Virus record (IMG/VR): IMGVR_UViG_2912765049_000001 | Coordinates: 64,001 to 128,000 of that record | Direction: 5' to 3' (one strand) | Length of the DNA stretch: 64,000 nt | Origin: a virus | Taxonomy: Duplodnaviria > Caudoviricetes | Shown: positions 18,415-53,717 of the stretch, one piece after another | Position numbering within the stretch: position 1 is the first letter of the stretch | How the letters are laid out: the number at the start of each line of letters is the position of its first letter | Translations under genes and position numbers: made by a program | Notes under the pieces: model-generated | Told to the model about the DNA's origin: nothing | Seen by the model: the letters and a program-made list of their open reading frames with translations, nothing else | Database searches by the model: none

Positions 18415-18438
18415 GATCTCCGGTTCTGAAACAGCTTC
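18415..18438 (-). repeat. Right terminal inverted repeat
   Basis: GATCTCCGGTTCTGAAACAGCTTC, exact reverse complement of 14095-14118. Confidence 0.92.
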
Positions 18439-36926: not shown

Positions 36927-38774
36927 CTACGAGTTTACGGGCGATCTTGACTGCTGCTGTCCCGCGTCAACTCCGGTGCCCTCCGCGGCCGGTAGGCCGC
37001 TGGGGCCGGGCAGGACCGGGGCGGGGATCTGCTCGGGGTCGGCGGGCTTCATGCCGAGGTAGTCGCGTACGGCGGCGGCATCACCGGTGGCGTCGGCGAG
37101 GGCGGCGGCCTGGTCGAAGGCGCGGGACTGGATGCGCTCGATCTCTTCCGGGATGTCCTCGATCGGCCAGCCGCCCTCGGCGAGCATCCGCAGCGCGGTC
37201 TCCAGGCTGATCAGCCGGGCCGCGTACGCGGTGGCGACCTCCTCGAGCACGCCCATGCGGTCGGTGGGGGTGTAAGCGCCGAAGACCATGTTCGCCGGGT
37301 GGACGCCGCGGCCGATCCAGTCGGGGTGCTGCCCGGCGATAAACAACCGCTGAACGAACCGCAGCAGGAGCTGGTACTTGTGCCGGCGGGCCAGGCGCAT
37401 GGCGGCGATCAGCTTGTCGAGCGGGCCGAGGGAGATCTTCAGGGCGTAGCCGGAAGGCAGCTGCGCCGGGTCCTGGGTGCCCAGTGCGATCGGGGGGAGG
37501 CGCAGGTTGACCGCTGCGCGCTCGCGCAGGGTCTCCACCGTGGCCAGGAGCTGGGCGAGTTGGGGTGCGGTGTTCACGACGTCCATGCGCCCGCCGTCGG
37601 CCAGCCGGAAGACGGTGCCGGGTTCGACCTGCACGCTGGCCCGGCCGTCCTGCAGGCCCGAGACGGACAGGATCGGGATGCCGGTGGTCGCCGAGGCGCG
37701 GGCCGCGTCGGTGTCGGATGCCGCCAGCTCGTCCATGATCTGAAGGACTGCCGCGAGGGACGCCTTACCCCAGTGCTCTTCGGCGCCGGGCACCGTGTTG
37801 GGCAGGTGGACCACCGGAATGAAGTCGATCAACAGGTCGAGGGCGTCGAGGACTTCGCCGTCGCCCCTCTGGGCGTAGGTGGCTTTGCCCATCGGCAGGT
37901 TGTCGACGTCGTCGGTGCGCTCGAGGTCTTCCAGCAGCCAGGTGGCGTCGGTGAGGTAGCAGGTGAGGTCGGACGGTTCGTCGTTCCAGGCGTACTGGCG
38001 CCAGATCCTGCCGTGCTCGTCGGCGGTGTCGCCCGGGGTGAGCTGCGGGTCGTCCTCGTCGCCGACGAAGGCACGCAGCGGCCGGCCGCGCCGGTCGGCG
38101 CCCGAGACGGTCGCCGGGCGGATGGGGCCGAGCTCGTAGGTGATGCGGCGCAGCCGCGCCTTGAGGCCGCGCCGTTTGTCCTCGGGGATCTCCCAGGCGA
38201 AGTGCACGCGGTGGGGGAACTCCCCGCCGTCGTCGCCCAGGATGGGGAAGTAGAAGCCGGGGTCCATGACGCGCACGACGGGGCGGCGCTTGTCGGGCTC
38301 CCAGGAGACCCGGTAGATGGCGTCCCCCAGGCCGACGGCCTTGCGCTCGGCCTGCTGCATCCGCATGGCCAGCTGCTCGTCCTCGGCCCAGGTGAGGAGG
38401 TCCTCCTGGACCGCGCGGGCTTCCTCGTCGAACGTGGTGGTGTCGTCCGGCTCCGTGCCGGCCACCACGATGCGCTGTTCGTCGCCGAGGACATCGGAGG
38501 TGATCGCGTCGACGAAGGCGGCCGGGTCGCCGTACTCGCGGCGTTCACGGGCGGAGGGCCCGTCGCGGACCTCGGCGAGTTCGCCGGCCTGGCCGCCGTC
38601 GTAGGCGGCGAGGACGGTGTACGCGGCGAGGCGGCGGGTGTCTTCCTCGGGCACCCAGGTGGCGTACGCGGACGGGAAGGCCCGCCGGTTGGGGTCGCCG
38701 GTGGTCGGATCGGCGTACACCGGCTTGAAGTTGAGCCAGCCCCAGGCGTCGATGAGGAATTGCCGCAGGCCCAC
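36927..38774 (-). CDS. Portal protein
   Basis: 615 aa; GLGDA, FIPVVHLPN, WGKASL, SGYAL, EEIERI. Confidence 0.82.
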   Translation of the reverse strand: MGLRQFLIDAWGWLNFKPVYADPTTGDPNRRAFPSAYATWVPEEDTRRLAAYTVLAAYDGGQAGELAEVRDGPSARERREYGDPAAFVDAITSDVLGDEQRIVVAGTEPDDTTTFDEEARAVQEDLLTWAEDEQLAMRMQQAERKAVGLGDAIYRVSWEPDKRRPVVRVMDPGFYFPILGDDGGEFPHRVHFAWEIPEDKRRGLKARLRRITYELGPIRPATVSGADRRGRPLRAFVGDEDDPQLTPGDTADEHGRIWRQYAWNDEPSDLTCYLTDATWLLEDLERTDDVDNLPMGKATYAQRGDGEVLDALDLLIDFIPVVHLPNTVPGAEEHWGKASLAAVLQIMDELAASDTDAARASATTGIPILSVSGLQDGRASVQVEPGTVFRLADGGRMDVVNTAPQLAQLLATVETLRERAAVNLRLPPIALGTQDPAQLPSGYALKISLGPLDKLIAAMRLARRHKYQLLLRFVQRLFIAGQHPDWIGRGVHPANMVFGAYTPTDRMGVLEEVATAYAARLISLETALRMLAEGGWPIEDIPEEIERIQSRAFDQAAALADATGDAAAVRDYLGMKPADPEQIPAPVLPGPSGLPAAEGTGVDAGQQQSRSPVNS

Positions 38775-38848: not shown

Positions 38849-39094
38849 TCAGGCGTAGCGGTGGCCGGCCTCGTAGTGCTCGAAGTCCCGGTCCTCGACC
38901 AGCCGCCAGGTGCGGCGGCGGCCGATGACCTGGTTCGCCCAGCGCTTGGCCAGCATGACGTCGCGCTCCGGGATCTCGCTGAACGTCTCGTGGCAGTCGC
39001 GCTTGCCGCCTTCCAGTTCCCAGCCGCTCACGTCCACGTCGATCCACGTCGGTGTCAGCTTGTACCAGGCGAGTTCGGCGAGTTCGTCGTCCAT
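38849..39094 (-). CDS. Hypothetical protein
   Basis: GGAGGA RBS before MDDELAELAWY; divergent from the HTH gene. Confidence 0.6.
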   Translation of the reverse strand: MDDELAELAWYKLTPTWIDVDVSGWELEGGKRDCHETFSEIPERDVMLAKRWANQVIGRRRTWRLVEDRDFEHYEAGHRYA

Positions 39095-39140: not shown

Positions 39141-39162
39141 TTACAACGTGATGTTGTATTGT
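39141..39162 (+). promoter_or_regulatory. Operator/promoter copy 1 (TTACAAC-GTGAT-GTTGTA-TTGT)
   Basis: Member of the 8-copy TACAAC-N5-GTTGTA family. Confidence 0.8.
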
Positions 39163-39177
39163 GGCAATGGAGCCGGA

Positions 39178-39198
39178 GACAACGGATCGTTGTATAGT
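39178..39198 (+). promoter_or_regulatory. Operator/promoter copy 2 (GACAAC-GGATC-GTTGTA-TAGT)
   Basis: Second copy upstream of the HTH gene. Confidence 0.8.
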
Positions 39199-39314
39199 CA
39201 GCGCCGGGCGCGGTCGACGTGCACCGACCGCCCGGAACACGTGCGGTCCACCCCGAGGAGAGCGGGGCGGACCGCACACCCATCGTTCCACCCGACAGCA
39301 GAGGACACAGGATC

Positions 39315-39569
39315 ATGACGAAGGAATCGAAGGAAGCGCCCCAAGAAGGGGGCGAGACCGAGGTGTGGGGTTACGCGGAGGTCGCCCAGGAGATCGGCGT
39401 GGCGGTCGGGACCGTGCGCTACTACTGGTCGCAGAAGCGCCACCTCCTGCCGGACCCTGACGTGACGCTGAGCGGAAAGCCCGGCTGGTACCCCGCGACC
39501 GTGAAGGACTGGAAGATCAAGCGCCCCGGCCAGGGCTTCCGCACCGACCTCCAGGACCAGGACTCCTGA
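39315..39569 (+). CDS. Small AlpA/MerR-type HTH DNA-binding protein (candidate repressor of the operator family)
   Basis: WGYAEVAQEIGVAVGTVRYY, LPDPD, PGWYPATVKDW, RPGQGFRTDL. Confidence 0.8.
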   Translation: MTKESKEAPQEGGETEVWGYAEVAQEIGVAVGTVRYYWSQKRHLLPDPDVTLSGKPGWYPATVKDWKIKRPGQGFRTDLQDQDS

Positions 39570-39673
39570 GCCGCCCAGACCGACGCTCGCACCGCCGCGG
39601 CGCGCCCCGCTCCCCCTCCGGAGCCGGGGCGCGCGGCGTTTCCAGCGGGCCGAAACAAGATCAGAAAAGCCCT

Positions 39674-39702
39674 TTCAACTTTACAACATAGCGTTATATA
39701 GT
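39674..39702 (+). promoter_or_regulatory. Operator/promoter copy 3
   Basis: TTCAAC-17 bp-TATAGT containing TTACAAC-ATAGC-GTTATA. Confidence 0.82.
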
Positions 39703-39746
39703 CTGCGGGAGAGGCCGGACCCGCCGGCCCCGAGGGGAGGAACGAG

Positions 39747-40241
39747 ATGTTCACCGTCAGCCTGGACCTCAACGCCCACGGCCTGCCCGCCAGCGATCCG
39801 CTGACGGTTCACGGGGTCGGCGCCTGGGTTCACGGCACGACCGGCATCCGATACTCCTTCCACGACCCGGCGATCCACTTCCCCGGCTCGGACTGCCCGG
39901 TCACCGGCGTCCTGGTGGCCGACAAGTACATCGACCCGGTCTACCGGGACGACCCGGCCAGCTACGACTTCGACGACGAGCCGGCCGTCTCGGTCAGCCT
40001 CGGCGACCCGACGGCCGCCGACGTGCACGACCAGATGATCGAGGTCGGCGACTGGGGCTTCAGCGGGTACGTGGTCTGCAGCGACCTGTACCTGAACCCC
40101 GGCCCGCACCCCGACCACGCCGACCGGTACCCCTTCGAGGCCGGGACGCGAGTGGACGGGCCGACATACCACCTCACCGCGAGCCTGCTGCGGGCCGCCG
40201 CCGCCGACTACGTACACCGGTGGAAGACGACCAACGTGTGA
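39747..40241 (+). CDS. Hypothetical protein (operator-driven cassette)
   Basis: GGGAGG RBS; acidic 164 aa. Confidence 0.72.
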   Translation: MFTVSLDLNAHGLPASDPLTVHGVGAWVHGTTGIRYSFHDPAIHFPGSDCPVTGVLVADKYIDPVYRDDPASYDFDDEPAVSVSLGDPTAADVHDQMIEVGDWGFSGYVVCSDLYLNPGPHPDHADRYPFEAGTRVDGPTYHLTASLLRAAAADYVHRWKTTNV

Positions 40242-40338
40242 CCTGCGCCCCGGCCTCCCCGCCGGGGCGCAGCCGTGACCGCAGCCCGGCGGAGGTGCTC
40301 TGACCTCCTCTTTTCTCTGGAAGATCGGCGCCATGCGC

Positions 40339-40367
40339 TTCAACCTTACAACGCTACATTGTATAGT
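40339..40367 (+). promoter_or_regulatory. Operator/promoter copy 4
   Basis: TTCAAC-17 bp-TATAGT containing TTACAAC-GCTAC-ATTGTA. Confidence 0.82.
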
Positions 40368-40412
40368 TGAGGTGCAAGGAACGGACCGGTACCAACGAGG
40401 AAGGAGTCAGAC

Positions 40413-40661
40413 ATGACCCTCGACCAGCCCACGGCGGACAAGGTGTTCGAGGCCGCCCTCGCGGCGCGGTTCCACCCCACCAACCTGGGCCTGACCGGCG
40501 AGGTGTGGGTCGACGGCTACACCTACCGGGTGGTCGTCACCGAGACGGAGCGGGCCTGCACCGACGTACGGGCGGGCTGGGGCGACGCCGAGTACACCTT
40601 CGCCAGCGCCAGCCCCGAGCAGGACCGGGCGCTGCGCGAGGCGATCGCCAACCCTAACTAG
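40413..40661 (+). CDS. Hypothetical protein (operator-driven cassette)
   Basis: AAGGAG RBS; followed by a hairpin at ~40668-40710. Confidence 0.72.
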   Translation: MTLDQPTADKVFEAALAARFHPTNLGLTGEVWVDGYTYRVVVTETERACTDVRAGWGDAEYTFASASPEQDRALREAIANPN

Positions 40662-40743
40662 CCGACAACGGCGGGGGCTTGCCCTGGGGCAAGCACGGCA
40701 AGCCCCCGCCACCCGACCCGCGACCGACCACCAAGGAGGCTCC

Positions 40744-41349
40744 GTGACCGTCACCTTCACCGCCGCACACCGGCCGCCGGTGGGCTACGCCGTCAGCTGC
40801 TGCTGCCCGCAGGCCACCGTGCTCGCCCCGCGCTTCGGCAGCTACCCGGATGCCCAGGATGCCGCCGACCGGGCCAACGCCGCCCCCGGCCCGCGAGACC
40901 CGCTGCCCGGCTGCGACCTGCCCGAGATCTGCCCGGAGTACCCGCTGTACGCGGAGGAGGTGGACCCGGACGGGGAGGTGCCGTTCGTTGAGTTCTCGAA
41001 CACCAACGTCGTCGGCGTCCTCGAGGCGCTCGGCTTCCCGCTCGCCGCGGACGCGGGCACGGCGTGCGACGCCCTCGAGGCCGGTCTGCCGCTCGAGGTG
41101 CCGGACGACGCCGTGGTGATCCCGGTCGCCGTGGTCGACGCCCACGGCCAGCTGGGCGCGGGAGACTTCCGGGCCCGGGTGCTGACCGCGCTCGGCCTGG
41201 CCCCCGAGGATCCCGGCGTGCCGGACCTCCGGCTCGGGCGCACGGTCGTCTGCGGCCGTGCGCCGGGCTACCTGCAGCGGCGCCTGCGGGAGCTGTACGA
41301 GCTGGCCGACTGGTGCGCTGCACACGGCCGCGAGGTGGCCTGGCACTGA
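40744..41349 (+). CDS. Hypothetical Cys-containing protein
   Basis: AAGGAGG RBS; ends GYLQRRLRELYELADWC..VAW. Confidence 0.7.
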   Translation: MTVTFTAAHRPPVGYAVSCCCPQATVLAPRFGSYPDAQDAADRANAAPGPRDPLPGCDLPEICPEYPLYAEEVDPDGEVPFVEFSNTNVVGVLEALGFPLAADAGTACDALEAGLPLEVPDDAVVIPVAVVDAHGQLGAGDFRARVLTALGLAPEDPGVPDLRLGRTVVCGRAPGYLQRRLRELYELADWCAAHGREVAWH

Positions 41350-41470
41350 CCCGGTCCGCCCCGCTTGCCCCGGGGCGGACCGGGCGCCGCACGGCGCGCT
41401 GTGGCCGCGTCGGCCACGCGCCAAGTGCCGTGCCCATCAGGGACTTTCCTCGAAAGATCTGGGCCGCGGC

Positions 41471-41499
41471 TTCCACCTTACAACGCATCATTGTATAGT
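41471..41499 (+). promoter_or_regulatory. Operator/promoter copy 5
   Basis: TTCCAC-17 bp-TATAGT containing TTACAAC-GCATC-ATTGTA. Confidence 0.82.
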
Positions 41500-41545
41500 T
41501 GATGTTGGAAGGGGCAGACGCCCAGGACGAACCGAGGAGCACCTC

Positions 41546-41884
41546 ATGAACAACGCACGACGCCGGGCCCGGATCTGCATAGCCTTCGCCCGCCAGGAGG
41601 TCGCCGAGACCTTCGGGCCGGTCGCCGACCTGGATGCCGAGGACCGCGCCTGGCGGCGGGAGTCCCTCGCCTCCACCTTCAAGGGGTACACGGAGAACCG
41701 GGTGACGGGGGTGGGCGCCGACTGGCGCGAGGCCCTCAAGGACGCCGCCGACAGAGGCCGGATCGACCTCGCCGAGTACGACGGGGACCTGACGGTCGCC
41801 CGCGACGCACTCCTGCACGGCGCGATCTGGGAGTTCGTCACCACGGCGGACGGGATGGCGATCCTGGACACCTGCGCCTCCTGA
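41546..41884 (+). CDS. Hypothetical protein (operator-driven cassette)
   Basis: GAGGAG RBS before MNNARRRAR. Confidence 0.7.
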   Translation: MNNARRRARICIAFARQEVAETFGPVADLDAEDRAWRRESLASTFKGYTENRVTGVGADWREALKDAADRGRIDLAEYDGDLTVARDALLHGAIWEFVTTADGMAILDTCAS

Positions 41885-41887
41885 ACA

Positions 41888-41940
41888 CCCGCAGCTTTGC
41901 CAGCCGCCCGAGCGCACCGGGCGGCTGGCAAAGCTGCGGG
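41888..41940. terminator. 23-bp perfect hairpin closing the cassette
   Basis: CCCGCAGCTTTGCCAGCCGCCCG-N7-CGGGCGGCTGGCAAAGCTGCGGG. Confidence 0.8.
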
Positions 41941-41979
41941 ACTACCCCCCACCCCGCCGGAGAAAGATCACCAAACCCC

Positions 41980-42009
41980 TTCCAACATTACAACACTGCG
42001 TTGTATAGT
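41980..42009 (+). promoter_or_regulatory. Operator/promoter copy 6
   Basis: TTACAAC-ACTGC-GTTGTA-TAGT. Confidence 0.82.
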
Positions 42010-42067
42010 TGATCTCGAAGGGGGCGGGCAAGCCCCCGGACCTTGATAAGTGCAGAGGGAGCGCAGC

Positions 42068-42292
42068 ATGGACGAGATGACGGTCGCCGACCTGATCGAG
42101 AAGCTCGAGCGGATGAACCCGGAGGCCAAGGTGCGCCTGGCCACGCAGCCGAACTACCCCTTCGAGTACACGATCGGCGAGGTGACCGAGACCGAGGACG
42201 GCACCTGCTGGATCGCCGAGGGCGAGCAGCAGGGCTACCTCAGCGGCGAGGCCCAGGAGGCCCTGGGCTGGAGCAACTGGAGCCGCAACTAG
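42068..42292 (+). CDS. Small acidic hypothetical protein
   Basis: MDEMTVADLIEKLE...PFEY; GGGAG RBS; hairpin downstream. Confidence 0.72.
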   Translation: MDEMTVADLIEKLERMNPEAKVRLATQPNYPFEYTIGEVTETEDGTCWIAEGEQQGYLSGEAQEALGWSNWSRN

Positions 42293-42361
42293 CCGAACGC
42301 CACACCGGGCCCGCCTCGAGGAGAGCGAGGCGGGCCCGCACGGAGACGAAAGGAGCAGCGG

Positions 42362-42568
42362 ATGCCCCTCTACATCCTCAAGGAGCTCGACTCGCAGGGC
42401 CGCGTCTTCCAGGACGACGACACCACCGAGTACTTCGACGACACCGACCACAACGGCAACGCGCTGGACGCCGCAATGGACGCCTACAACTTCCGGGTCG
42501 GTCAGACCGATGAGGCTTGGGGCGCCGGGGTCGGCGCGACCCGCTGGACGCTCCTTCAGGTCGGCTAG
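42362..42568 (+). CDS. Small acidic hypothetical protein
   Basis: AAGGAG RBS; DDDTTEYFDDTD. Confidence 0.7.
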   Translation: MPLYILKELDSQGRVFQDDDTTEYFDDTDHNGNALDAAMDAYNFRVGQTDEAWGAGVGATRWTLLQVG

Positions 42569-42621
42569 CCCCCGACACCCGCTCCTGGCAGCCCCGGCCC
42601 ACCCGGCCGGGGCTGCGCCGT

Positions 42622-44181
42622 TCACCGGCGTCCGTTGAGGCGCCCGTCGCGGTAGCCGCCCGTCCCGCTGTCCACGGCCGCCGGGTTGGCGAGTTCCGTC
42701 AACGCGTGCACCGCCGCGTCCATCCGGTCCGGCGAGTCCAGGCCCGGCATCCAGGTCACCATCTGGACCTCGAGCGCCGGCCACTCCCCCACGTGCCGCA
42801 CCCGGCCCTGCTCGTACAACTGCGCGATCGGCTCCGCCCTCAACCTCTTGCCCTGCTTCGCGGTCACCGGAATGATCCGCGGGCGCAGCGCCCCGGCCGC
42901 CTCGGGCCCGCCGCCGCGTACCAGTTCGTCCCAGCCCTGGACCAGCACCTGGCGGGTCATGTCGCCGCCGAAGTTGGACTCGACGACCAGGGCGTCCGCG
43001 TCGACCTCGAGGGCGAGTTCGCAGGCGGCGCGCCCCCAGTCGGCGGCGCCCATCTTCCCGGAGCGGTCGGCCAGGACGTACAGGTTCCCGGCGGCGTCGC
43101 GGCCGGCGGCCACGATGCCGACCTCGTCGCTGTCCTCGCCGCCTCCGGCCGGGTCGACCGCGACGACGATCCGGGTGAGCTTGATGCCGCGCAGCTGCTC
43201 GGTGCTGACCCGGTGGCCGCGGATCCACTCCCACTTCCAGATGCCGCCCTCGAGCGGCCTGGGCTGCTGCTGGTACAGCGCCCACCAGCCGCGCTCGCCG
43301 ACTTCGTCGCGGAAGTCCTGCAGGTGCTCGAGGCCGAAGCGTTCGGGCCACAGCGGCTCGCCGAGGGCGCGGCCGAGGGCGTCGTCCGGGCTGTCGGCGA
43401 TCGCGGGGAGGTTGATGACCGTCCAGCGCGCGGTGTCGCGGGCGGCGTCCTGGGTGAGGATCCGGCCCGCGAGGTCGTTCTCCGACCAGCGGGTCTGGAT
43501 GACCACGATGGAGCCGTTGGGCTCCATACGGGTGTTGAGGACCTGCTGCCACCAGTCCCACAGGTCGCCGAGCACCGTGGGGCTGGCGGCGGCCTTGGCG
43601 TCCTTCAGCGGGTCGTCGACGATCGCCAGGTGCGCGCCCATGCCCGTCAGCGAGCCGCCGACACCGGCGGTGACGAGGCCGCCGGGGCCCCCGGTGAGGT
43701 CGAAGCGGCCGGCCGCCTTGGAGCCGTAGCGCAGGGAGATGCCGAGCTGTTCGCCGTACTCGTTGATGGAGTCGCGCAGCCAGCGGCCGTGGCCTTCGGC
43801 GAGCACGGCGCTGTAGGAGGCGATCATCAGCCGGTGGGTGGGGTTGCGGCGCAGGTACCACAGGGGCGCCCACCGGGCGGCCCTCTGGCTCTTGCCGTGC
43901 CGGGGCGGCATGTTCAGCAGGAGCCGGACCCGCTCGCCGCGGGCGATCCGGATGAACGCCTGGTCGATGAGGTTGAGGTGCCGGGCCTGGAGCTCGCGGC
44001 CGTCGGTCAGGAGCGCGGCGAGCGCCCCCGGGGAGCGGTCCATCGCCATCTGCCGCTCGATGTGGGCCAGGCGGATGCGCAGGTCGGGCGAGGCGGTGCG
44101 GGCGATGACGAGCCGCTGGGCGCGCGGGAGGGTGCGGTAGCGCTCGAGGAGGCGTTGCTCCTGGTCCGGCGCCTTCATCAT
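42622..44181 (-). CDS. Terminase large subunit
   Basis: MPPRHGKS Walker A, IVDDP Walker B, IQTRW, VAVDPA, VESNFGG, PDRMDA. Confidence 0.93.
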   Translation of the reverse strand: MMKAPDQEQRLLERYRTLPRAQRLVIARTASPDLRIRLAHIERQMAMDRSPGALAALLTDGRELQARHLNLIDQAFIRIARGERVRLLLNMPPRHGKSQRAARWAPLWYLRRNPTHRLMIASYSAVLAEGHGRWLRDSINEYGEQLGISLRYGSKAAGRFDLTGGPGGLVTAGVGGSLTGMGAHLAIVDDPLKDAKAAASPTVLGDLWDWWQQVLNTRMEPNGSIVVIQTRWSENDLAGRILTQDAARDTARWTVINLPAIADSPDDALGRALGEPLWPERFGLEHLQDFRDEVGERGWWALYQQQPRPLEGGIWKWEWIRGHRVSTEQLRGIKLTRIVVAVDPAGGGEDSDEVGIVAAGRDAAGNLYVLADRSGKMGAADWGRAACELALEVDADALVVESNFGGDMTRQVLVQGWDELVRGGGPEAAGALRPRIIPVTAKQGKRLRAEPIAQLYEQGRVRHVGEWPALEVQMVTWMPGLDSPDRMDAAVHALTELANPAAVDSGTGGYRDGRLNGRR

Positions 44182-44221
44182 GGGGGGCTCCGTGCACCCC
44201 CGCGCACCTTTCCATGATCTC

Positions 44222-44623
44222 TCAGATCGGGGGGTCCTCGATCAGCGCGAGGAGTTCGTCCAGTTCGGCGGCGGTGACGGCGGCCGGGTCGACGGCGGGT
44301 CCGGCGCTCTCGAGGCGGGCCGGGGCATCCAGGCCCAGGCGTCGGCTGCGGCTGTCGCTGATGGCGAGTGCGGTGCTGATGGCGTCGAGGTCGCCGGTCG
44401 TCGCCAAGTCCCAGATGGCGTGCTGGAGTTCGTCGAGGGAGCGCTGGTCGGCTTCGTGGCGGGCGAGGGGCTCGAGCGGGTCGGTGGCTGCGAGGGCGTC
44501 GGCGAAGTCGGCGGCGGCCTCGGCTGCGTCGGCGTAGTCCAGCTCCCGGGCGATGGCGGTGAAGTCCTCGCCGGTGAGGCGGCGGCGGAGCAGTTCGGCA
44601 CGCCGCTGGTCGAGGTGCGCCAT
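44222..44623 (-). CDS. HTH protein, terminase small subunit-like (paralog of 46936..47400)
   Basis: RRAELLRRRLTGEDFTAIARELDY...GDLDAI...RRLGLDAP. Confidence 0.65.
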   Translation of the reverse strand: MAHLDQRRAELLRRRLTGEDFTAIARELDYADAAEAAADFADALAATDPLEPLARHEADQRSLDELQHAIWDLATTGDLDAISTALAISDSRSRRLGLDAPARLESAGPAVDPAAVTAAELDELLALIEDPPI

Positions 44624-44749
44624 GGTGTCCTCCATGAGTCACACCGCCGGGGGGCGGTGTGGTGGCCCCTGCGCGGGTCCCTTCTGGTCAACCTGCGGAG
44701 CAGGGGCTCCGATCTGCGGCAATGGAGATCAGGAAGATGCCCCACACCC

Positions 44750-44779
44750 TTCCATCTTTAAAACGCTCCGTTGTATAGT
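44750..44779 (+). promoter_or_regulatory. Operator/promoter copy 7 (leaderless)
   Basis: TTAAAAC-GCTCC-GTTGTA-TAGT with ATG 6 nt after the -10 box. Confidence 0.8.
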
Positions 44780-44785
44780 TGAGCC

Positions 44786-45055
44786 ATGCCGAAGAGGACA
44801 CGCAGGGACCGGGACAGCGAGCGCGAGCAGATCGGCCAGCGCCTCGAAGCCGAAGTCGCCGAGATCAGGTTCGCCTGGCTGAAGCAGGACACCGAGCAGA
44901 AGACGCGGGAAGTGCTGGAACTCCTGGGCGTATCGGACGCCTGGAAGCGGGAGACGGCGGCCAGGCTGTACCAGCAGATGGCGGCGGGCGAACTGGACCC
45001 TCGGGTCGGGTTCGAGCAGGCCGCCTTCGTACAGTCCCTGACCGTGACCGAGTAG
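44786..45055 (+). CDS. Hypothetical protein (leaderless cassette)
   Basis: ORF directly after operator copy 7; hairpin downstream. Confidence 0.7.
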   Translation: MPKRTRRDRDSEREQIGQRLEAEVAEIRFAWLKQDTEQKTREVLELLGVSDAWKRETAARLYQQMAAGELDPRVGFEQAAFVQSLTVTE

Positions 45056-45117
45056 CACGGCCCACGGGGCGGCGGGCACCCCCCGCCGCCCCGCCACGGC
45101 CGCCACCACGGAGCTGT

Positions 45118-46197
45118 TCACGTTCGCGGTCGGCCCAACTCGGCGGCGTCCAGGATCCGTTCGCGCACGGTCTGGGCGATGGCCCGCATCAGCAGCGGGG
45201 GGACGGAGTTGCCGATGCGCGCCCAGACCTTGTCGACGGGGCTGTCGCCCCAGTCATAGGCGTCGGGGAAGGTCTGCAGGCGCGCGAGTTCCCGTACGCC
45301 CAGCAGGCGGTCCTCGTCGGGGTGGAGCAGACCGTTGCGGGACGCGCTCACCTCCTTGATGAGCGTGAAGGCCGGTTTGTCCCAGGCCAGGCGCTCGAGG
45401 GAGAAGAACGCCTTCTTGCCGCCGAGGTCGAGGAGCGTGTCGCCGCCGTTGCGGCCGGGCGGGATGAGCGGGGCCACGCGGGCGGCCTTGCCGGAGGGGC
45501 GCTGGAAGGGGCCGGGGTCGTCCAGGCCGGCCAGGGCCTCCCGGACGGTCAGCGGCCGGTCGACGGGCGCCGGGTGGACCGGGTCGACGCAGAGGTCGCG
45601 CCGGACACCGATGAAGATCATGCGCATGCGCTTCTGCGGGACGCGGAAGTAGGAGGCGTCCACGAGGCGGGCGGTGACCCGGTAGCCGGGCCCGGCGGCC
45701 TTGAGCGCGCCGAGGATCTCGGCGAACAGGGAGCGCATCTGCCCGCGGACCATCCCGGCGACGTTCTCCATCACGAACGTCTTGGGCTGCCAGTGCTCGA
45801 TCAGCCGTACGTATTGGCGGAAGAGCTGATTGCGGGGGTCGTCGATCTGCCGGCGGCCCACCGTGCTGAAGCCCTGGCAGGGCGGGCTGCCGTCGAACAC
45901 GTCCAGCTCACCCGGCACCAGCCCGAGGACGGCCGGGTCCAGGGCGGCGATGTCGCCGTGGTGCAGCAGCACGTGGGGGAAGTTGCGGCGGAAGCAGTCG
46001 GCGGCGTGGTCGTCCCACTCCACGGCGAGCAGCTCCCGGTATCCGGCCATGGAGTAGCCCAGGGAGCTGCCCCCGGCCCCGGCGAAGGTCGACACGACGG
46101 TCGGCGCGTCCGCCGCGCGCGGGGCGAGGTGGGCGGCCCAGGCGTCGGCCAGGAGCCGGCCGTAGTCGAGCCGGGTGCGGACGACGGCCGGGCTCAC
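45118..46197 (-). CDS. DNA (cytosine-5) methyltransferase
   Basis: FAGAGG, GSPPCQGFS, ENV, QKRMRMIF, RELARLQTF, IGNSVPP. Confidence 0.93.
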   Translation of the reverse strand: MSPAVVRTRLDYGRLLADAWAAHLAPRAADAPTVVSTFAGAGGSSLGYSMAGYRELLAVEWDDHAADCFRRNFPHVLLHHGDIAALDPAVLGLVPGELDVFDGSPPCQGFSTVGRRQIDDPRNQLFRQYVRLIEHWQPKTFVMENVAGMVRGQMRSLFAEILGALKAAGPGYRVTARLVDASYFRVPQKRMRMIFIGVRRDLCVDPVHPAPVDRPLTVREALAGLDDPGPFQRPSGKAARVAPLIPPGRNGGDTLLDLGGKKAFFSLERLAWDKPAFTLIKEVSASRNGLLHPDEDRLLGVRELARLQTFPDAYDWGDSPVDKVWARIGNSVPPLLMRAIAQTVRERILDAAELGRPRT

Positions 46198-46733
46198 GCT
46201 GCGGCCTCGTCACCGGTGAACGTGTGCCCGCACTGGGGGCAGGTGTGGGTGGTGGGCTGGAGGGCCTCGGCGATCGACTCGTCGAACGCGGCGAACCCTT
46301 CCGGGAGTTCGGCGGTCAGCAGGCGGGTGACCTCCTGCTGGCTCCAGCCGGTCCCCTCGAGGTCGCCGTCGAGCGCCGCGAGCGCGGCGGCGAGGTCCTC
46401 CTCGTCGTAGAAGCCGAGCTCGGCGAGCTTGTTGTCCGCCAGGTTGATACGGCGAGCGGTGTCGTCGTCGCAGGTGATGACCTCGCACCGGGCGGTGGTA
46501 CGGCCCTCGGCACGAAGCGCGTCGGAGGTGTGGTTGCCCGCCAGCACCACCAGGGAGTCGCCGGTGTCGCGGACGACCAGGGAGCGGTACTGGCCGTGGC
46601 GGCGGATGGAGGCCCGGATCGATTCGACGTCGCCGCGGCGGGGGTTGCCCGGGTAGCGGGTCAGGTCCTCGAGCGGGACGTCGCGGGTGCCGGTGTAGGT
46701 GGCGCCGGGCAGGCCGGCGGTGGTCTCGCTCAT
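46194..46733 (-). CDS. ParB/Srx-like N-terminal domain protein with a C-terminal Zn ribbon
   Basis: PGNPRRGD, LAGNHT, NLADNK, CPQCGHTF. Confidence 0.8.
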   Translation of the reverse strand: MSETTAGLPGATYTGTRDVPLEDLTRYPGNPRRGDVESIRASIRRHGQYRSLVVRDTGDSLVVLAGNHTSDALRAEGRTTARCEVITCDDDTARRINLADNKLAELGFYDEEDLAAALAALDGDLEGTGWSQQEVTRLLTAELPEGFAAFDESIAEALQPTTHTCPQCGHTFTGDEAAA

Positions 46734-46936
46734 GCGGGGCGTCCTTCGTTGTGGTCCGCGATGATGCGCCGGGCCCAGGTGTCGGGGTCCTCGAAGCCCC
46801 ACCTGCGGGCGTCCCATTCGGTGGCGCGGTCGCGGATGTCGATCCAGATGTCCAGGAGCTGGTCCCGCAGGGCCGGGTCACGGGTGCGGCGCAGTCGGGC
46901 GGCGAGGTGGGCGAAGGCGGCCGGGTGCGCGGGCAC
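46730..46936 (-). CDS. Hypothetical protein
   Basis: GTG overlapping the upstream stop (VPAHPAAFAHLAARL...). Confidence 0.55.
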   Translation of the reverse strand: MPAHPAAFAHLAARLRRTRDPALRDQLLDIWIDIRDRATEWDARRWGFEDPDTWARRIIADHNEGRPA

Positions 46937-47400
46937 TACGCCTCCTCCGGCGTCTCGCCGCCGGGCGCGGAGTCGTCGGTCAGCGTGATCAGGCGTTCCA
47001 GCTCGGCGAGGTCGACGGCTTCGACCTGGAGCGGGCCGCCGTCGGCGCCGGTGATCTCGGTACGGGCGGGCCGGTCGAGTCCGAGAAGCCGGGCACGGCG
47101 GTCGATGACCTTCAGGACGGTCTCGATCGCCTTCAGGTCGCCCTTGGCGGCCTTGGCCCAGGCGGCGGCCTGCATCCGGTCCAGACGCTGGACTTCGAGT
47201 TCGCGCAGGGTCGCCGCCGCGGCCGACTCGGCCTCGAGGTTGGCCTCGAGCGCGCGGTGGACGTCCTTGGAGGCGGCGCCGCGGTCGGAGTAGTCGAGCC
47301 GTTCGGCGATCGTCTGGAAGTCCATGCCGGCCAGCCGCAGCGCGATGGCCTGCGCGCGGCGGTGTGCGGTGGCGGCGCGTTGCGCCTTGGACGCGGGCAC
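46936..47400 (-). CDS. Terminase small subunit-like HTH protein
   Basis: RRAQAIALRLAGMDFQTIAERLDY, RRARLLGLD, EITGADGGPLQV. Confidence 0.72.
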   Translation of the reverse strand: MPASKAQRAATAHRRAQAIALRLAGMDFQTIAERLDYSDRGAASKDVHRALEANLEAESAAAATLRELEVQRLDRMQAAAWAKAAKGDLKAIETVLKVIDRRARLLGLDRPARTEITGADGGPLQVEAVDLAELERLITLTDDSAPGGETPEEA

Positions 47401-47414
47401 GGGTCAGCCCCCGT

Positions 47415-48692
47415 TCAGTCGTCCTGGTCGGGGAGGGTGAAGTCGTGCGGCTCGCCGGTGGACTTGAGCACGGGCTGTTCGCCGGTGTGTTCCTGGTAGC
47501 GGCGGCAGATGACGTCGGCGTACCGGGGGTCGAGCTCGACGACGCGGGCCGAGCGGCCGGTGACGTGCGCGGCGATGAGCGTGGACCCGGAGCCGCCGAA
47601 CGGCTCGTAGACCAGCCCGTCGGGGCGGCACGAGTTGCGCAGGCCGGCGGTGATGAGGTCGACGGGTTTGGAGGTGGGGTGCTCGGCGTTGCGCGCGGGC
47701 TTGGGCACCTCGAACACCGTGGTCTGCGCGTTGTCGCCGTACCAGCGCTCCCCGCCACGGCCCAGCCGCCCGGACCCGGCCGGCGCGTCGGTGAACCCGT
47801 ACAGGATCGGCTCGTGCCGGTAGTGGTAGTCCGACCGGCCCAGGACCATGGTGTCCTTGGCCCAGATCAGGTTCTGCCGCACCAGCCACCCGGCGTCCGT
47901 CATCGCGGTCTCGAAGGTGATGCGGGCGGTGTCGGCGTGCGCGACGTAGACGGGCGCGCCGGGCTTGAGGGCGACGGTGGCCACCGCGAAGGCGCCGGCC
48001 AGCAGTTCGGGCAGGTCGGTGGCCCCGTCGTTCTGGATGGTCAGCGCGTCCTTGGTCTTGCCGACGTAGTCGACGCCGTACGGCGGGTCGGTCCACATCG
48101 CGTCGCAGCGGTCGCCGTCGAGCATCTCCTCGACGGCCGCGACGTCGGTGGAGTCGCCGACCAGGAGGCGGTGGCGGCCGAGGATCCAGACGTCGCCGAC
48201 CTGGGAGTGCGGGTCGGCCGGGGCATCGGGGATGTCGTCGGGGTCGGTGAGCGCGGCGGGCTCTTCCTCGGTACCCAGCAGGGCGGAGACATCTTCGGCG
48301 GTGTAGCCGGTGCCGTCGAGGTCTCCGTCGAGGTAGGAGAGCAGGTCCGCCAGGGCGTCGTTGTCGTACGTGCCGAGCTCGGCGAGCCGGTTGTCGGCGA
48401 GGTTGATGCGGCGGGCCTGGTCGTCGTCGCACTCGATGACCTCGCACCGGGCGGCGGCGTAGCCCTCGGCCTTGAGGGCGTCGTGGGTGTGGTTGCCGGC
48501 CAGGATGACGTACTGGTCCTCGCCCAGGGCGCGCACCACCAGGGAGCGGTACTGGCCGTGGCGGCGCAGCGAGCCGCGGATGGCGTCGATGTCGCCGCGC
48601 CGGGGGTTGCCGGGGAACCGCTCGAGCTGGTCGAAGGGGATCTCGCGGGTGCCGAGGTAGGTCACCGCGGCGGTGGGCGTGGGGGTGCCCAT
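47415..48692 (-). CDS. ParB-like domain fused to an N6A/N4C DNA methyltransferase (beta class)
   Basis: PGNPRRGD, WTDPPY, HPTSKPV, EPFGGSGST. Confidence 0.9.
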   Translation of the reverse strand: MGTPTPTAAVTYLGTREIPFDQLERFPGNPRRGDIDAIRGSLRRHGQYRSLVVRALGEDQYVILAGNHTHDALKAEGYAAARCEVIECDDDQARRINLADNRLAELGTYDNDALADLLSYLDGDLDGTGYTAEDVSALLGTEEEPAALTDPDDIPDAPADPHSQVGDVWILGRHRLLVGDSTDVAAVEEMLDGDRCDAMWTDPPYGVDYVGKTKDALTIQNDGATDLPELLAGAFAVATVALKPGAPVYVAHADTARITFETAMTDAGWLVRQNLIWAKDTMVLGRSDYHYRHEPILYGFTDAPAGSGRLGRGGERWYGDNAQTTVFEVPKPARNAEHPTSKPVDLITAGLRNSCRPDGLVYEPFGGSGSTLIAAHVTGRSARVVELDPRYADVICRRYQEHTGEQPVLKSTGEPHDFTLPDQDD

Positions 48693-48813
48693 GGCAGCTC
48701 CGTCCACCCCCACAGTGCCGTGATCCATTTTCCCCGACCCCGGCGGTGACCTGGGCGGGCGTCAAGTGGCCCGGAGCGGCGGGCGGTTCGGCAAAAGATC
48801 ATGCCCCCTCCCC

Positions 48814-48843
48814 TTCCAACCTTACAACGCTTCGTTGTATAGT
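48814..48843 (+). promoter_or_regulatory. Operator/promoter copy 8
   Basis: TTACAAC-GCTTC-GTTGTA-TAGT. Confidence 0.82.
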
Positions 48844-48879
48844 TGGGGTGTGAGGACGACCCGCCCCCAGGAGGCAGAG

Positions 48880-49230
48880 ATGCAGCGCACCGCCGGACAC
48901 ACCCACTGCCTCCGCTGCGACCGCGTCCTGCGCTCCCCCCGCTCCGCCGCCCTCGGCTACGGCCCGACCTGCCTGCGCAAGGTCAAGGCCGCCGCCCTCG
49001 CCCACGCGCGGACCGGCAGCCACAAGCCCGCCCAGGTCGCGAAGGCCACCGAGCTGATCGAGATGGGCGGCCTGGTCCGCCTGCGCGCCCGCCGGGTCTT
49101 CCAGGTGGTCGCCTCCGACGGGATCACCACCTACAAGACCGCCCCGCAGGCGTGCACCTGCCCGGCCGGACTGCGCGGCCAGCACACCTGCTACCACCGG
49201 ATCGCCGCCCAGATCGTCGCCGCCGCCTGA
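48880..49230 (+). CDS. DUF6011-like Zn finger plus SWIM-type Zn finger protein
   Basis: CLRCDRVLRSPRS..LGYGPTC and CTCPAG....CYH; AGGAGG RBS. Confidence 0.75.
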   Translation: MQRTAGHTHCLRCDRVLRSPRSAALGYGPTCLRKVKAAALAHARTGSHKPAQVAKATELIEMGGLVRLRARRVFQVVASDGITTYKTAPQACTCPAGLRGQHTCYHRIAAQIVAAA

Positions 49231-49268
49231 CCGGCGGCGGCCCGACGGGCCGGACAGAGAGGAACACC

Positions 49269-49739
49269 GTGACCGACTCCGACGCCTACGAGATCGACTG
49301 GAACGACGGGAACCAGGAGATCGCCGAATCCGTGATGTGGGCCGCCGACGAGCGCAAGCCGCTTCTCGTCACGACCCCCAAGGGCGAGATCGTCCGCCTG
49401 GTCCCCGAGACCGCCCCCGAGACCGAGGCCGCAACGCCCGCCGCTCTGGAGGGCGTCGTGGCCCACCCGATCGTCGAAGAGCGCAACAGGTCCCTTCGGG
49501 TCACCGGTGCCCCGAACGTGACGGACTTCTTCGGCGTCACCCTCGCCCCGCAGTCGGTGTACCTGAAGTACCGCCGGCCCACGGGCGAGGAGCCGATGCT
49601 GGAGATGGCGTACGTCAACGGCTACCGCGTGCCGGGCACCAACAAGCCGGAGGAGTACACCACCATCACCTTCATCCCCGGCACCCACGACCTGCCCGCC
49701 TGGCTTGCCGCCCTGGTCGACGCCCACATGCCGTGGTGA
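49269..49739 (+). CDS. Hypothetical protein
   Basis: GAGGAA RBS before GTG (VTDSDAYEIDW). Confidence 0.65.
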   Translation: MTDSDAYEIDWNDGNQEIAESVMWAADERKPLLVTTPKGEIVRLVPETAPETEAATPAALEGVVAHPIVEERNRSLRVTGAPNVTDFFGVTLAPQSVYLKYRRPTGEEPMLEMAYVNGYRVPGTNKPEEYTTITFIPGTHDLPAWLAALVDAHMPW

Positions 49740-49936
49740 CCCTCCCCCGGTCGTCCAGCCGGCACCGCCCCTCGCCCCGCCCGCCGGCGGGGCGTTCGGC
49801 TTTCCCCCTGCGGTGCCGGCATCGGCGCAGCACAGGGCCGGTTTTCCGGGGTTGCAAGTCCTGCCCGAGCGGAGTGATGAATGGGCCGCCGCCACCCCGG
49901 CGGCATCAACTCCCCTACGAGAAGCAGGAGTTCGCC

Positions 49937-50461
49937 ATGTCTGTCGAGGTCACCAACGAGGTCCGTGCACGGTACGGCCGGGCGCTGCTCGCGTACTACG
50001 ACGACGCCCGGGCCGCCCTCGGGCACGAGCCCAGCGCCCGGGAGGACGTCGGCCTGGTGTGGGCGGCCTGCGCCCGGGGCGGCAGCCAGGACCGGTGGGA
50101 CGCGGTACGGGCCGAGGACCTGGCGGCGGACGCCGACTGGGCGTGCGAGGTCCTGGGCGACCTGGTCTCCAACCTCTTCCACGCGGCCGACGGGATCGTG
50201 ATCCCCCGGCTGCTGCTGGACGCGGTGGCCGCCTCGGAGAGCCGGGGCGAGGCCGCCTGGGGCGAGGCCGCCCGTACGGAGGCGTGGCGCCTGCTGGGTG
50301 AGCGGGGCCCGCGGTTCGCCCGCCTCCTGATCGCGATGCGCCGGGCCCTGCTGACGGTCCATGACGTCGACGCCGACGGTCTGTTCGAGGGGGCCCGCAG
50401 CGCCTTCGAGGCCGAGGTCGAGGAGGAGCGGTACGACGCGGTGGCCGCCCGGCGCGCCTAG
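49937..50461 (+). CDS. Hypothetical protein
   Basis: AGGAG RBS before MSVEVTNEV; hairpin at ~50474-50500. Confidence 0.65.
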   Translation: MSVEVTNEVRARYGRALLAYYDDARAALGHEPSAREDVGLVWAACARGGSQDRWDAVRAEDLAADADWACEVLGDLVSNLFHAADGIVIPRLLLDAVAASESRGEAAWGEAARTEAWRLLGERGPRFARLLIAMRRALLTVHDVDADGLFEGARSAFEAEVEEERYDAVAARRA

Positions 50462-52529: not shown

Positions 52530-53717
52530 TCAGCGGGAGGGGCCGGTGCCGTAGCGGACCGGCAGTTCGACCAGGCCGCGGGCGCGCAGGGAAGGCCGCC
52601 AGCGCAGTTCGCTCCCGGCCAGCTCGAGGTCCTCGAACCGGCCGAGGAGCGCGGCGAGGGCGATCTCGGTCTCCAGCCGCGCCAGCGGTGCGCCCAGGCA
52701 GTAGTGGATGCCGTGGCCGAGCGCCAGGTGGCCGGCGGCGTCACGGCCGAGGTCCAGGCGGTCGGGGTCGGAGAAGCGGTCCGGGTCGCGGTTGGCGGCG
52801 GACGGGGACAGCAGCACCGTGTCGCCCGCGGGGATCGTCACGCCGCCGATCGTCACGTCCTGGGTGGGGAAGCGGCGGATGGCGAGCAGGGCCGGGCCCT
52901 CGAAGCGGGCGAACTCCTCGACCGCGCCGGCGATCCGTGCCGGGTCCTCGCGCAGCAGGGCCATCTGGTCCGGGTGCTGCAGGAGCGCCAGGACCGCGTT
53001 GCCGATCAGCTGCACCGAGTTCTCGTATCCGGCGAAGAGGATGAGGAACGCCAAGGACATCAACTCGTCCTCGGTGAGCCGGTCGTCGTCGGCGTCCCGT
53101 ACGGCGATCAGGTCGGAGAGGAGATCGTCCGCCGGGCTGGCCCGCTTGTGGGACATGAGGTCCTTGAAGAACCCCATCATCGCCACCACGGCCTCCTTGG
53201 CGGCCTGGGGCCGGCTCGGATCGGGGGCGACCAGCGCGCTCCCCCAGGAGCGGAAGTCCCGTCGGTGGCTGTCGGGGATGCCGAGGAGTTCGCAGATCAC
53301 GGTGATCGGCAGGGGCGCCGCGTAGGCGGCGATCAGGTCGGTCGTGCCCTGCGCACCCAGCGCGTCCAGGAGCCGTTCGGCGGTGGCCGTGACCGGCTTG
53401 CGCAGCTGCTCGACCCGGCCGGGGGTGAAGGCGCGTCCGACCAGGCGGCGCAGCCGGGTGTGGTCCGGCGGATCCATGTTGAGCAGGTTGGCGTCCAGTG
53501 CCGGCGGCAGCGCCAGCCCGCGATAGCTGCCCTCCCGGGCGTGCGCCTTGTCCAGCGACAGCCGCGGGTCGGCGAGCGCGGAGCGTACGTCGTCGTACCG
53601 GGTGACGAGCCAGGCCGGTTGGCCGTCGGGCCCGGCGATGCGGTGTACGGGCGAGGCGGTGCGCAGACTCCGGTAGACGTCGTATGGGCGGGTTATCAAA
53701 TCGTCCGCAAGATCCAT
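52530..53717 (-). CDS. Cytochrome P450 (CYP107-like)
   Basis: LNMDPPDHTRLR, AGYENS, EFAR (ExxR), HLALGHGIHYCLG. Confidence 0.93.
   Translation of the reverse strand: MDLADDLITRPYDVYRSLRTASPVHRIAGPDGQPAWLVTRYDDVRSALADPRLSLDKAHAREGSYRGLALPPALDANLLNMDPPDHTRLRRLVGRAFTPGRVEQLRKPVTATAERLLDALGAQGTTDLIAAYAAPLPITVICELLGIPDSHRRDFRSWGSALVAPDPSRPQAAKEAVVAMMGFFKDLMSHKRASPADDLLSDLIAVRDADDDRLTEDELMSLAFLILFAGYENSVQLIGNAVLALLQHPDQMALLREDPARIAGAVEEFARFEGPALLAIRRFPTQDVTIGGVTIPAGDTVLLSPSAANRDPDRFSDPDRLDLGRDAAGHLALGHGIHYCLGAPLARLETEIALAALLGRFEDLELAGSELRWRPSLRARGLVELPVRYGTGPSR

Follow-up and report, generated by a model that had tools for sequence, protein, structure and literature searches.

The stretch of DNA analysed here, 64,000 nucleotides long and referred to below as the window, corresponds to bases 64001-128000 of C2, an extrachromosomal Streptomyces replicon of 151,949 bp and 71.4% G+C that forms the second contig beside a chromosome of 9.62 Mb (C1). 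C2 probably carries an autorepressed regulon of its own, in which a MerR-like helix-turn-helix (HTH) protein of 84 residues would act, through the operator TACAACG-N3-CGTTGTA (hereafter the box), on a set of portable gene cassettes. This reading is built on the sites themselves, their restriction to the element, their promoter context and conservation, the fold class of the protein and its co-occurrence with the box, each of which is established in the following sections.

The box, its promoter and its distribution

The motif TACAAC-N5-GTTGTA occurs in the window three times in exact form and eight times at one mismatch or fewer, against 0.12 copies expected from dinucleotide-preserving shuffles. 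An earlier note on this DNA had claimed eight such copies, and these sites are real, although the coordinates it gave are one base off in most cases; the boxes start at 39142, 39178, 39682, 40347, 41479, 41989, 44759 and 48823. The anchored alignment of the copies reveals a longer conserved unit, in which CTTCCAAC is followed by a gap of 2-3 nt, by TACAACG-N3-CGTTGTA, by TATAGT, which shares two bases with the palindrome, and by a T. The half-sites in this alignment are effectively 7 bp long, and their centres are separated by 11 bp.

A -35-like TTC(C/A)A(A/C)C is situated 2-3 nt 5' of the box in seven of the eight window sites, and TATAGT lies directly 3' of the box in seven of the eight (TATTGT at 39142). 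The promoter is of host type (TTCCAAC / TATAGT), and the box takes up almost all of its -35/-10 spacer and extends over the first two bases of the -10, in agreement with the position in the spacer described in the earlier note. The upstream AAGAT element reported there is also present, 24-28 nt from the box, at six window sites and at ten sites replicon-wide (0.013 expected per window); the HTH promoter and the divergent box sites lack it. As AAGAT(C) it stands near -50 of the cassette promoters, e.g. at window positions 39658, 40322, 41455, 41965, 44735 and 48796. It could be an UP-like element or the site of a second factor, or could act via a GATC methylation site.

The replicon and the chromosome were scanned with the extended box pattern. 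C2 contains 16 boxes, at 6604, 57759, 103142-112823 (the eight window sites), 140864, 143129, 144507, 145180, 150531 and 150763, and the set is not limited to the 39-49 kb interval of the window to which it had been assigned. All 16 are intergenic, in a replicon whose non-coding share is only 17.6%. The scan of the 9.62-Mb chromosome found no credible box, only three poor matches with three mismatches and without promoter context, and in 400 other genomes of the genus the search gave a single site, in one genome. The box of a host regulator common in the chromosome, a possibility that the earlier note had itself raised, is rejected because the chromosome is without credible sites and the box is near-absent from the congeneric genomes; the box is private to the element.

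The boxes at 6604, 57759 and 143129 lie in divergent intergenic regions and look promoter-like on both faces, and those at 140864, 144507 and 145180 head minus-strand genes. Almost all genes beside boxes are orphans, and no box was found at the ParB/DciA module, the TraB-like gene or the terminase gene of C2. Outside the window (C2 150243-150795; L012 2243-2795), between a ligase gene and a prim-pol gene, there is a gap of ~550 bp free of open reading frames (ORFs), at the head of which stand the two minus-strand boxes 150531 and 150763. The gap holds T-arm-like strings (GGTTCGATTCC) and a GGGCCGGGTA...AGAGTCCCGG motif, repeated twice. tRNA-like RNAs were considered for this gap and rejected: ARAGORN at default settings and Rfam gave no match, and relaxed ARAGORN returned only aberrant tRNA-like folds with 2- or 4-nt anticodons. 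The gap behind the two boxes may specify a box-controlled non-coding RNA.

Close homologues of the HTH protein (about ten, 58-89% identity) are encoded mostly on Streptomyces contigs of 137-147 kb. Four homologue loci on such sister elements have one layout, consisting of the portal gene, a + strand island in which two boxes and the HTH gene come first, the terminase gene, methylase genes and a cassette with a DUF6011 protein; the content of the island differs among the four, and a box-promoter stands at matching places in all of them. Across 42 sites of C2 and four sisters, the half-sites, the -35 and the -10 are conserved and the N5 core and flanks vary. In the S. muensis copy, which is 98.4% identical to C2, several cores have changed and the half-sites have not.

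The 84-residue protein and its link to the box

The profile of the HTH family, compared with the PDB, matches the MerR DNA-binding domain (4ua1, 4e-5), the P2 C repressor, BldC (6amk/6ama), RacA (5i41), mycobacteriophage Xis (4j2n) and AlpA, and the protein also matches phrog_66 (Xis-like). The AlphaFold2 model has the order helix-helix-beta-beta-helix, with a predicted local distance difference test score (pLDDT) of ~90 over the core residues 17-69. In the Foldseek search with this model, all top rows are MerR-type domains on DNA, RacA-DNA first, at weak E values of 0.015-0.3. The model ends in helix 60-69 and disordered tails, and the 84 residues leave the protein without a coiled coil for dimerisation and without an effector domain. 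Profile and model together indicate that the protein is a stand-alone winged helix of the MerR superfamily, of the BldC/RacA/Xis type. The recognition helix, GT[VI]RYYWS[QK]K.HLLP, is invariant down to 52% identity. Homologues in small actinophages occupy a mid-genome position. The chromosome encodes a paralogue (C1 6080375-6080539) with 46% identity over 57 aa, and there is no box near it.

The HTH gene is the first gene of its own unit, a hairpin following it, and the other cassettes have promoters of their own. The region is organised as follows (window coordinates).

39142-39158, both strands: box O1, a perfect palindrome and putative shared operator of divergent promoters, with a rightward -10 TATTGT toward the HTH gene and a leftward -10 TAAAGT
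39178-39198, + strand: box O2, GACAAC-N5-GTTGTA and TATAGT, without a -35; putative second operator in the HTH promoter region
39199-39314, + strand: leader of the HTH gene, strongly structured (-54 kcal/mol over 116 nt)
39315-39569, + strand: gene of the 84-residue stand-alone MerR-like winged-helix protein, the candidate repressor (phrog_597, 3e-18)

Since box O2 is without a -35, it is apparently a second operator placed downstream of the first promoter. Its left half-site is weakened (AACAAC or GACAAC), and this weakening is conserved in the sisters. The double box ahead of the HTH gene, which the earlier note had described, was recovered, and the arrangement is kept in the sisters L026, L027 and L033. 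The sisters have a 73-aa ORF in the position of the HTH leader, before the same hairpin, and homology starts from 39245.

The protein and the box also occur together on linear plasmids of the S. albidoflavus group (155-439 kb), which encode, in a non-phage setting and ~10 kb from the replicon end, a homologue of 52% identity with an identical recognition helix. In two complete linear records (172 and 186 kb), perfect boxes occur at just three sites; none is farther than ~7 kb from the HTH gene, and one precedes its start by ~100 bp. When all ORFs within 9 kb of the linear-plasmid HTH gene were compared with C2 by tblastn, five shared genes were obtained, namely those of the HTH protein, a ligase, p201, p126 and p178. 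The genes of p201 (window 40744-41349), p126 (C2 144082-144462) and p178 (C2 142552-143088) are box-controlled on both replicons, and the distribution of p126 among plasmid records is exactly that of the HTH protein (7/7). Relatives without the HTH gene are also without the box, as seen in pSLE1, CP108738 and a p178-bearing Kitasatospora plasmid (241 kb). The HTH homologue of an S. antimycoticus plasmid (43.5% identity) has a changed helix, and there is no box nearby; G296 has a lone box, but with its HTH homologue (44% identity) on another contig it is uninformative about the link.

The HTH protein is favoured as the binder because, in the strictly box-linked set formed by it and the p126/p164-family proteins, it alone has a DNA-binding fold; p126 and p164 are acidic and without a DNA-binding signature. 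The earlier note had proposed it as the repressor of a regulon with one shared operator-promoter, and it is the best candidate for that role on comparative evidence, the helix and the box co-occurring on linear plasmids, rather than on position alone. The comparison further suggests that the HTH protein, the box, a p126/p164-family protein, p201 and p178 constitute a core set that travels between phage-plasmids and linear plasmids.

Cassettes, cargo and the replicon

The comparisons indicate that a promoter, one or two small acidic ORFs and a GC hairpin together make up a portable cassette; it is used in both orientations and comes and goes as a whole. The units of the window, together with the late genes that border the + strand island, are given below.

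36927-38774, - strand: portal gene (phrog_64 portal, 1.5e-10), left border of the island
38849-39094, - strand: leftward cassette, an 81-aa acidic ORF (isoelectric point, pI, 5.0) with ribosome-binding site and with a hairpin before the portal gene; apparently driven by the leftward face of box 39142
39682-40241, + strand: cassette 2, box-promoter (box 39682-39698), p164 ORF 39747-40241 (pI 4.6), hairpin
40347-41349, + strand: cassette 3, box 40347-40363, p82 40413-40661, Cys-rich p201 40744-41349; present or absent as one unit among sisters
41479-41884, + strand: cassette 4, box-promoter (box 41479-41495), p112 41546-41884, hairpin of -39 kcal/mol
41989-42568, + strand: cassette 5, perfect box 41989-42005, p74 42068-42292, p68 42362-42568, a hairpin after each ORF; phrog_6161 (function unknown)
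42622-44181, - strand: large terminase gene (Terminase_6N/6C), right border of the island
44759-45055, + strand: cassette 6, box-promoter (box 44759-44775, TATAGT 44774-44779), p89 44786-45055
48823-49739, + strand: cassette 7, perfect box 48823-48839, DUF6011+SWIM protein 48880-49230, acidic p156 49269-49739; conserved in all sisters

The cargo proteins are acidic (pI 4.0-5.3), all except the DUF6011+SWIM protein (48880-49230), which is basic (pI 10.7) and Cys-rich; the HTH gene is not, as the earlier note had it, the sole recognisable gene of the set. Hairpins of -28.8 to -39.2 kcal/mol per 45 nt were found at eight of the 11 cassette ORF ends, and a ninth reaches -27.0, against a mean of -21.8 (sd 4.2) in random windows. 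The picture of small, often acidic ORFs closed by a hairpin is borne out by these values. A simple terminator scan misses the hairpins because they are without T-tails. The mRNA of p89 is probably leaderless, since its ATG lies 6 nt past the -10. The leftward face of box 39142 offers a promoter-like TTGCCA-18-TAAAGT (39167->39138), directed toward the portal gene with a hairpin intervening, and the 81-aa ORF behind it is not conserved, the sisters having 102- or 117-aa ORFs there. A + strand ORF at window 49733-50461 has a high G+C content at third codon positions and an Arg/Pro-rich N-terminus that is apparently untranslated; it is doubtful that it is a real gene or a part of cassette 7.

The portal and terminase genes adjoin each other in the distant relatives pSLE1 and CP108738, and the compared stretches of these two contain no box and no homologue of any regulon protein. 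The indels between sisters match whole cassettes. L026 is without exactly 40275-41451, which is one promoter, p82, p201 and hairpin, and L025 has gained or kept a DUF4314 cassette that is inserted after the hairpin at ~40274, ahead of the promoter that follows. p164 comes next after the HTH gene in the three sisters compared over that interval; it is a paralogue of the box-controlled p126 (E=3e-9). In the place of cassette 6, L025 and L026 have an oppositely oriented unit, and L024, L025 and L026 have a minus-strand-facing box upstream of terS/terL; in L025 this box is followed by two small acidic ORFs and, ahead of terS, a hairpin. The earlier note had all boxes facing the + strand, antisense to the late operon. 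As a defining feature this is not supported, for box 39142 is bidirectional, these sister units face in the direction of terS/terL and other boxes of C2 drive minus-strand genes; the antisense arrangement is incidental because the cassette works in either orientation. Two phrog_645 paralogues are situated at window 44222-44635, the small-terminase position, and at 46936-47400, among ParB-like and methylase genes.

Comparison of the cargo with Pfam, PHROGs, NCBIfam and PADLOC matched no family of known function. One box-controlled gene matches a PHROG that is described as a membrane protein and assigned to the category 'moron, auxiliary metabolic gene and host takeover'. p164 is restricted to this lineage of elements, and a feature search of the protein atlas with it returned nothing. 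p201 is common on Streptomyces plasmid-sized contigs; the atlas search with it returned unnamed phage and actinobacterial clusters only, and its look-alike models are found among phage proteins of unknown function. Its own model has a pLDDT of 85, and Foldseek with this model gave no match at E<=0.001. VIA-align placed the Neisseria DNA mimic DMP12 (Z 6.8), a CdiI immunity protein (Z 6.2) and YfbM (Z 5.4) ahead of a drop to 4.2, all of them below the Z of 8 under which the tool's benchmark counts matches as noise. We take these rows as a lead toward a small acidic inhibitor-like fold, not as a finding.

Distant homologues of p201 (L039 and L040, the Streptomyces sp. NBC_00637 plasmid CP109047.1 and a related contig) are embedded in long arrays of small ORFs that all point the same way, together with LPD29, DUF932, a phage zinc-binding domain, an AAA/Cap4-like protein and an NAD-dependent ligase. 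These arrays resemble plasmid establishment regions under a different control and by this analogy are weakly in line with a role of the cargo at entry or against host defence. Plasmids of Amycolatopsis, Streptosporangium, Sulfobacillus and many haloarchaea encode homologues of the N-terminal domain of p178 (~85 aa), a plasmid-borne domain of very wide spread for which Pfam gives a weak match to the HEPN/RES N-terminal domain 1.

C2 carries a full set of phage genes (terminase, portal, scaffold, major capsid and tape measure) together with ParB and DciA as maintenance genes, a WhiB-like gene, several DNA methylases and a translocase of the TraB/FtsK type; neither terminal inverted repeats nor an end overlap was found on it. 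Its closest DNA relatives are circular Streptomyces plasmids of 86-94 kb with head genes in common, including pSLE1, which was annotated by its authors via synteny with the characterised plasmid-phage pZL12 (PMC4487206). C2 can be viewed from its gene content as a large plasmid-phage that could reach a new cell via infection or via Streptomyces-type conjugation, two routes that are suggested by the phage gene set, the TraB-type translocase and the pZL12-type relatives.

Further observations concern other parts of the replicon. Window 14090-18439 (C2 78090-82439) is a 4.35-kb mobile element with 99.98% identical copies at C1 ~85960-90309 and 9529412-9533761, at both chromosome ends, and these paired copies mark the terminal inverted repeats of the chromosome. 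A divergent tyrosine-integrase-like gene (C2 53675-54862; phrog_1 8e-7, Pfam below cut-off) is situated near the sole tRNA gene of C2 (tRNA-Met, 52818-52892) and is the far end of a minus-strand gene string that starts at box 57759. Cargo with a flavour of defence or RNA repair comprises a Mrr-like restriction endonuclease, a cytochrome P450, a 2'-5' RNA ligase family protein, an AbiV-type HEPN protein and a HAD domain of the 'Swiss Army Knife' RNA-repair type (window 54026-54739, 52530-53699 and 702-1376; C2 60732-61490 and 5960-6505); the gene of the HAD domain is box-controlled.

Proposed mechanism, rival explanations and known systems

Binding of the box by the HTH protein, repression rather than activation, and a burst on entry followed by damping are what we infer from the sequence comparisons. 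TACAACG-N3-CGTTGTA would be the operator of an element-encoded repressor, occupied by two HTH monomers, one per half-site and one helical turn apart, in the manner of RacA, a protein of the same class that forms a symmetric dimer on a 14-bp inverted repeat (PMC12266134). Because the box fills the spacer and overlaps the -10, the bound protein would exclude RNA polymerase. The protein would repress its own gene through two boxes, an arrangement that fits negative autoregulation, and also at least 14 further promoters of C2. A repressor regulated in this way implies a burst of all box promoters on entry into a repressor-free cell and damping thereafter, so that entry by infection or TraB-type conjugation would be followed by a burst of the regulon and then by a low level in the carrier state.

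Several points weigh against this reading. For BldC, D29 Gp36 and Xis the target is a set of direct repeats, on which they assemble head to tail, rather than a palindrome (PMC12266134). The -35 resembles TTGACA only moderately, the spacer has 18 nt and the strength of the promoter is assumed. The hairpins are perhaps not full terminators, since some stand between co-transcribed ORFs and one in the HTH leader. The sisters are close kin, and their agreement therefore amounts to one lineage plus the linear-plasmid lineage, not to many cases. Co-occurrence alone cannot single out the HTH protein, p126 being equally distributed, and this leads to a rival that we regard as unlikely, namely that another protein of the element binds the boxes and the HTH gene is itself only regulated. 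Such a binder might be an unrecognised one among the box-linked orphans, where p126 tracks the box as exactly as the HTH protein does, or the DUF6011+SWIM protein, whose gene is in all sisters behind a perfect box and whose basic, Cys-rich composition would suit the role; the direct repeats usual for BldC-type proteins (PMC12266134) point the same way. However, the acidic p126 and p164 are poor candidates for DNA binding, and a search up to 9 kb from the three linear-plasmid boxes turned up no DUF6011 homologue. p178 and p201 were rejected as binders, both being found on plasmids or loci without the box: p178 is present on many plasmids without the HTH gene, e.g. the Kitasatospora plasmid, and distant p201 homologues on plasmids of 390-560 kb have neither box nor HTH gene within 10 kb. 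The GntR/UTRA protein (8878-9558) and a MarR/TrmB-type protein (C2 3508-4203) were rejected because their own genes are without a box; the MarR-type proteins of C2 and of the linear plasmids are, moreover, not orthologous.

Other rivals accept the HTH protein as binder and differ in what it does. It is possible, though not what we expect, that under the same operator logic the cassettes are morons whose expression in the carrier state is low and constant and serves fitness of the carrier, exclusion or defence, rather than an anti-defence burst at entry. Self-contained units of promoter, ORF and hairpin between conserved phage genes, variable among sisters, are the classical moron pattern; many units are opposed to the structural operon, which would suit expression while the late genes are silent, and both the membrane-protein PHROG match and the defence-type cargo of C2 (Mrr-like and AbiV genes) fit as well. 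Nevertheless, no cargo protein matches any PADLOC defence model, and an entry burst follows in any case from the logic of an autorepressed repressor, so that both readings can hold together. Activation in the MerR style, with the HTH protein reshaping the promoter from within a slightly over-long spacer, would accord with the MerR-type DNA-binding domain, with the operator lying between -35 and -10 as at MerR-family promoters, and with a spacer of ~18 nt rather than 17. We consider it improbable, as canonical MerR activation requires a spacer of 19-20 bp and a coiled-coil dimer (PMC12266134), whereas the HTH protein has no coil, the box overlaps the -10 itself and the tandem boxes at the HTH gene suggest autorepression. 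That the protein is a recombination directionality factor of the excisionase type and the boxes its architectural sites is hardly credible, although the family includes Xis-like members (4j2n, AlpA; phrog_66), homologues stand mid-genome in small actinophages and a weak integrase-like gene lies beside the only tRNA gene of C2. That gene is ~50 kb distant, all 16 sites are embedded in promoters and are palindromic rather than direct-repeat arrays, and around the linear-plasmid homologues, which are close to the replicon end, the 18-kb annotated stretch contains no integrase.

Beyond the autorepressed regulon itself, we tentatively entertain a broader and doubtful proposal, in which the cassettes are a hot-swappable establishment or anti-defence arsenal of Streptomyces phage-plasmids and linear plasmids, with ~25 small acidic proteins that fire on entry into a new mycelium and are then silenced by one tiny MerR-like repressor. 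If this were so, the p126/p164 family, p201 and other orphans would be new inhibitors of host defence or nucleoid proteins, and the promoter-operator that the cassettes share would also serve as a handle for recombination, by which they pass from one replicon to another. Little work has been done on Streptomyces phage-plasmids of the pZL12 type, and the control of their accessory genes was previously obscure; for this the present analysis supplies a defined operator, a candidate repressor, 16 promoters and ~25 cargo genes, and the linear plasmids provide an independent second lineage with a three-box mini-version of the module. The use of a stand-alone MerR-like domain as a palindrome repressor, the genes fired on entry and the action of the orphans on host defence are thereby opened to test, and the promoter-operator pair could be a compact, orthogonal repressible expression switch for Streptomyces engineering.

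Among known systems, the phage-plasmid P1 has a C1 repressor with 22 dispersed operators, which are asymmetric 17-mers (PMC8546580). Like C2, it is an extrachromosomal prophage in which one repressor serves replicon-wide operators at the promoters of separate units, at sites private to the element. P1 C1 is a large primary immunity repressor over lytic replication and the late activator; the candidate on C2, in contrast, is an 84-aa MerR-like protein, its sites are palindromic and the regulated genes are small accessory orphans. The phiC31 c repressor, reported by the Smith laboratory in the 1990s, is said to recognise a 17-bp inverted repeat at many intergenic or promoter sites of a temperate Streptomyces phage; it is reportedly a large immunity protein with multiple isoforms, and its target early promoters are reportedly not of host type. 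The host genus is the same, whereas the promoters of C2 look host-type and its regulator is tiny. The 17-bp palindromes of Cluster O mycobacteriophages were rejected as an analogue since most of them are not at promoters.

Plasmid kil-kor regulons, of which that of RK2 KorA is a further example, share with C2 a small plasmid repressor, palindromic sites in several promoters, genes mostly of unknown function and the logic of an entry burst. The Streptomyces TraR/KorA repressors of this kind are of GntR type and control traB (PMC4447253). In C2 the candidate is instead MerR-like, and the GntR gene (8878-9558) and the TraB-like gene (56115-58646) are without a box. The Acr-Aca systems also have a small HTH protein that autorepresses a strong promoter via inverted repeats, and a small, acidic, fast-evolving cargo. 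Aca, however, is the last gene of the acr operon, whereas the HTH gene of C2 is the first of its own unit and is proposed to act in trans on many promoters, and no cargo of C2 has a known anti-defence match. Lambdoid morons are promoter-ORF-terminator units between conserved genes that are absent there in relatives, each with its own unrelated promoter. The cassettes of C2 agree with this build in the adjacency of portal and terminase genes in pSLE1 and CP108738, in the cassette-sized indels of the sisters and in the hairpins; they differ from classical morons in having one common promoter-operator and one regulator.

The protein itself resembles RacA (5i44), BldC (6ama/6amk), D29 Gp36 and Pukovnik Xis, which are likewise MerR-type winged helices of similar size without a coiled coil or effector domain. 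RacA is unlike the proposed protein in being a chromosome anchor and not a promoter repressor, and BldC, Gp36 and Xis form filaments on direct repeats. To our knowledge, no stand-alone MerR-like binder among these four governs a multi-promoter cassette regulon. D29 Gp36 represses phage genes, and it, Pukovnik Xis, BldC and RacA are all described as stand-alone MerR-like binders (PMC12266134). By analogy with these systems, the proposed control logic is familiar, one repressor serving many dispersed operators on a temperate phage or plasmid. Apparently new is the use of a tiny MerR-like domain as a classical palindrome-binding promoter repressor. The sequence evidence likewise points to novelty in the uniform cassette build, with turnover of whole cassettes between sisters, and in a core module common to phage-plasmids and linear plasmids.

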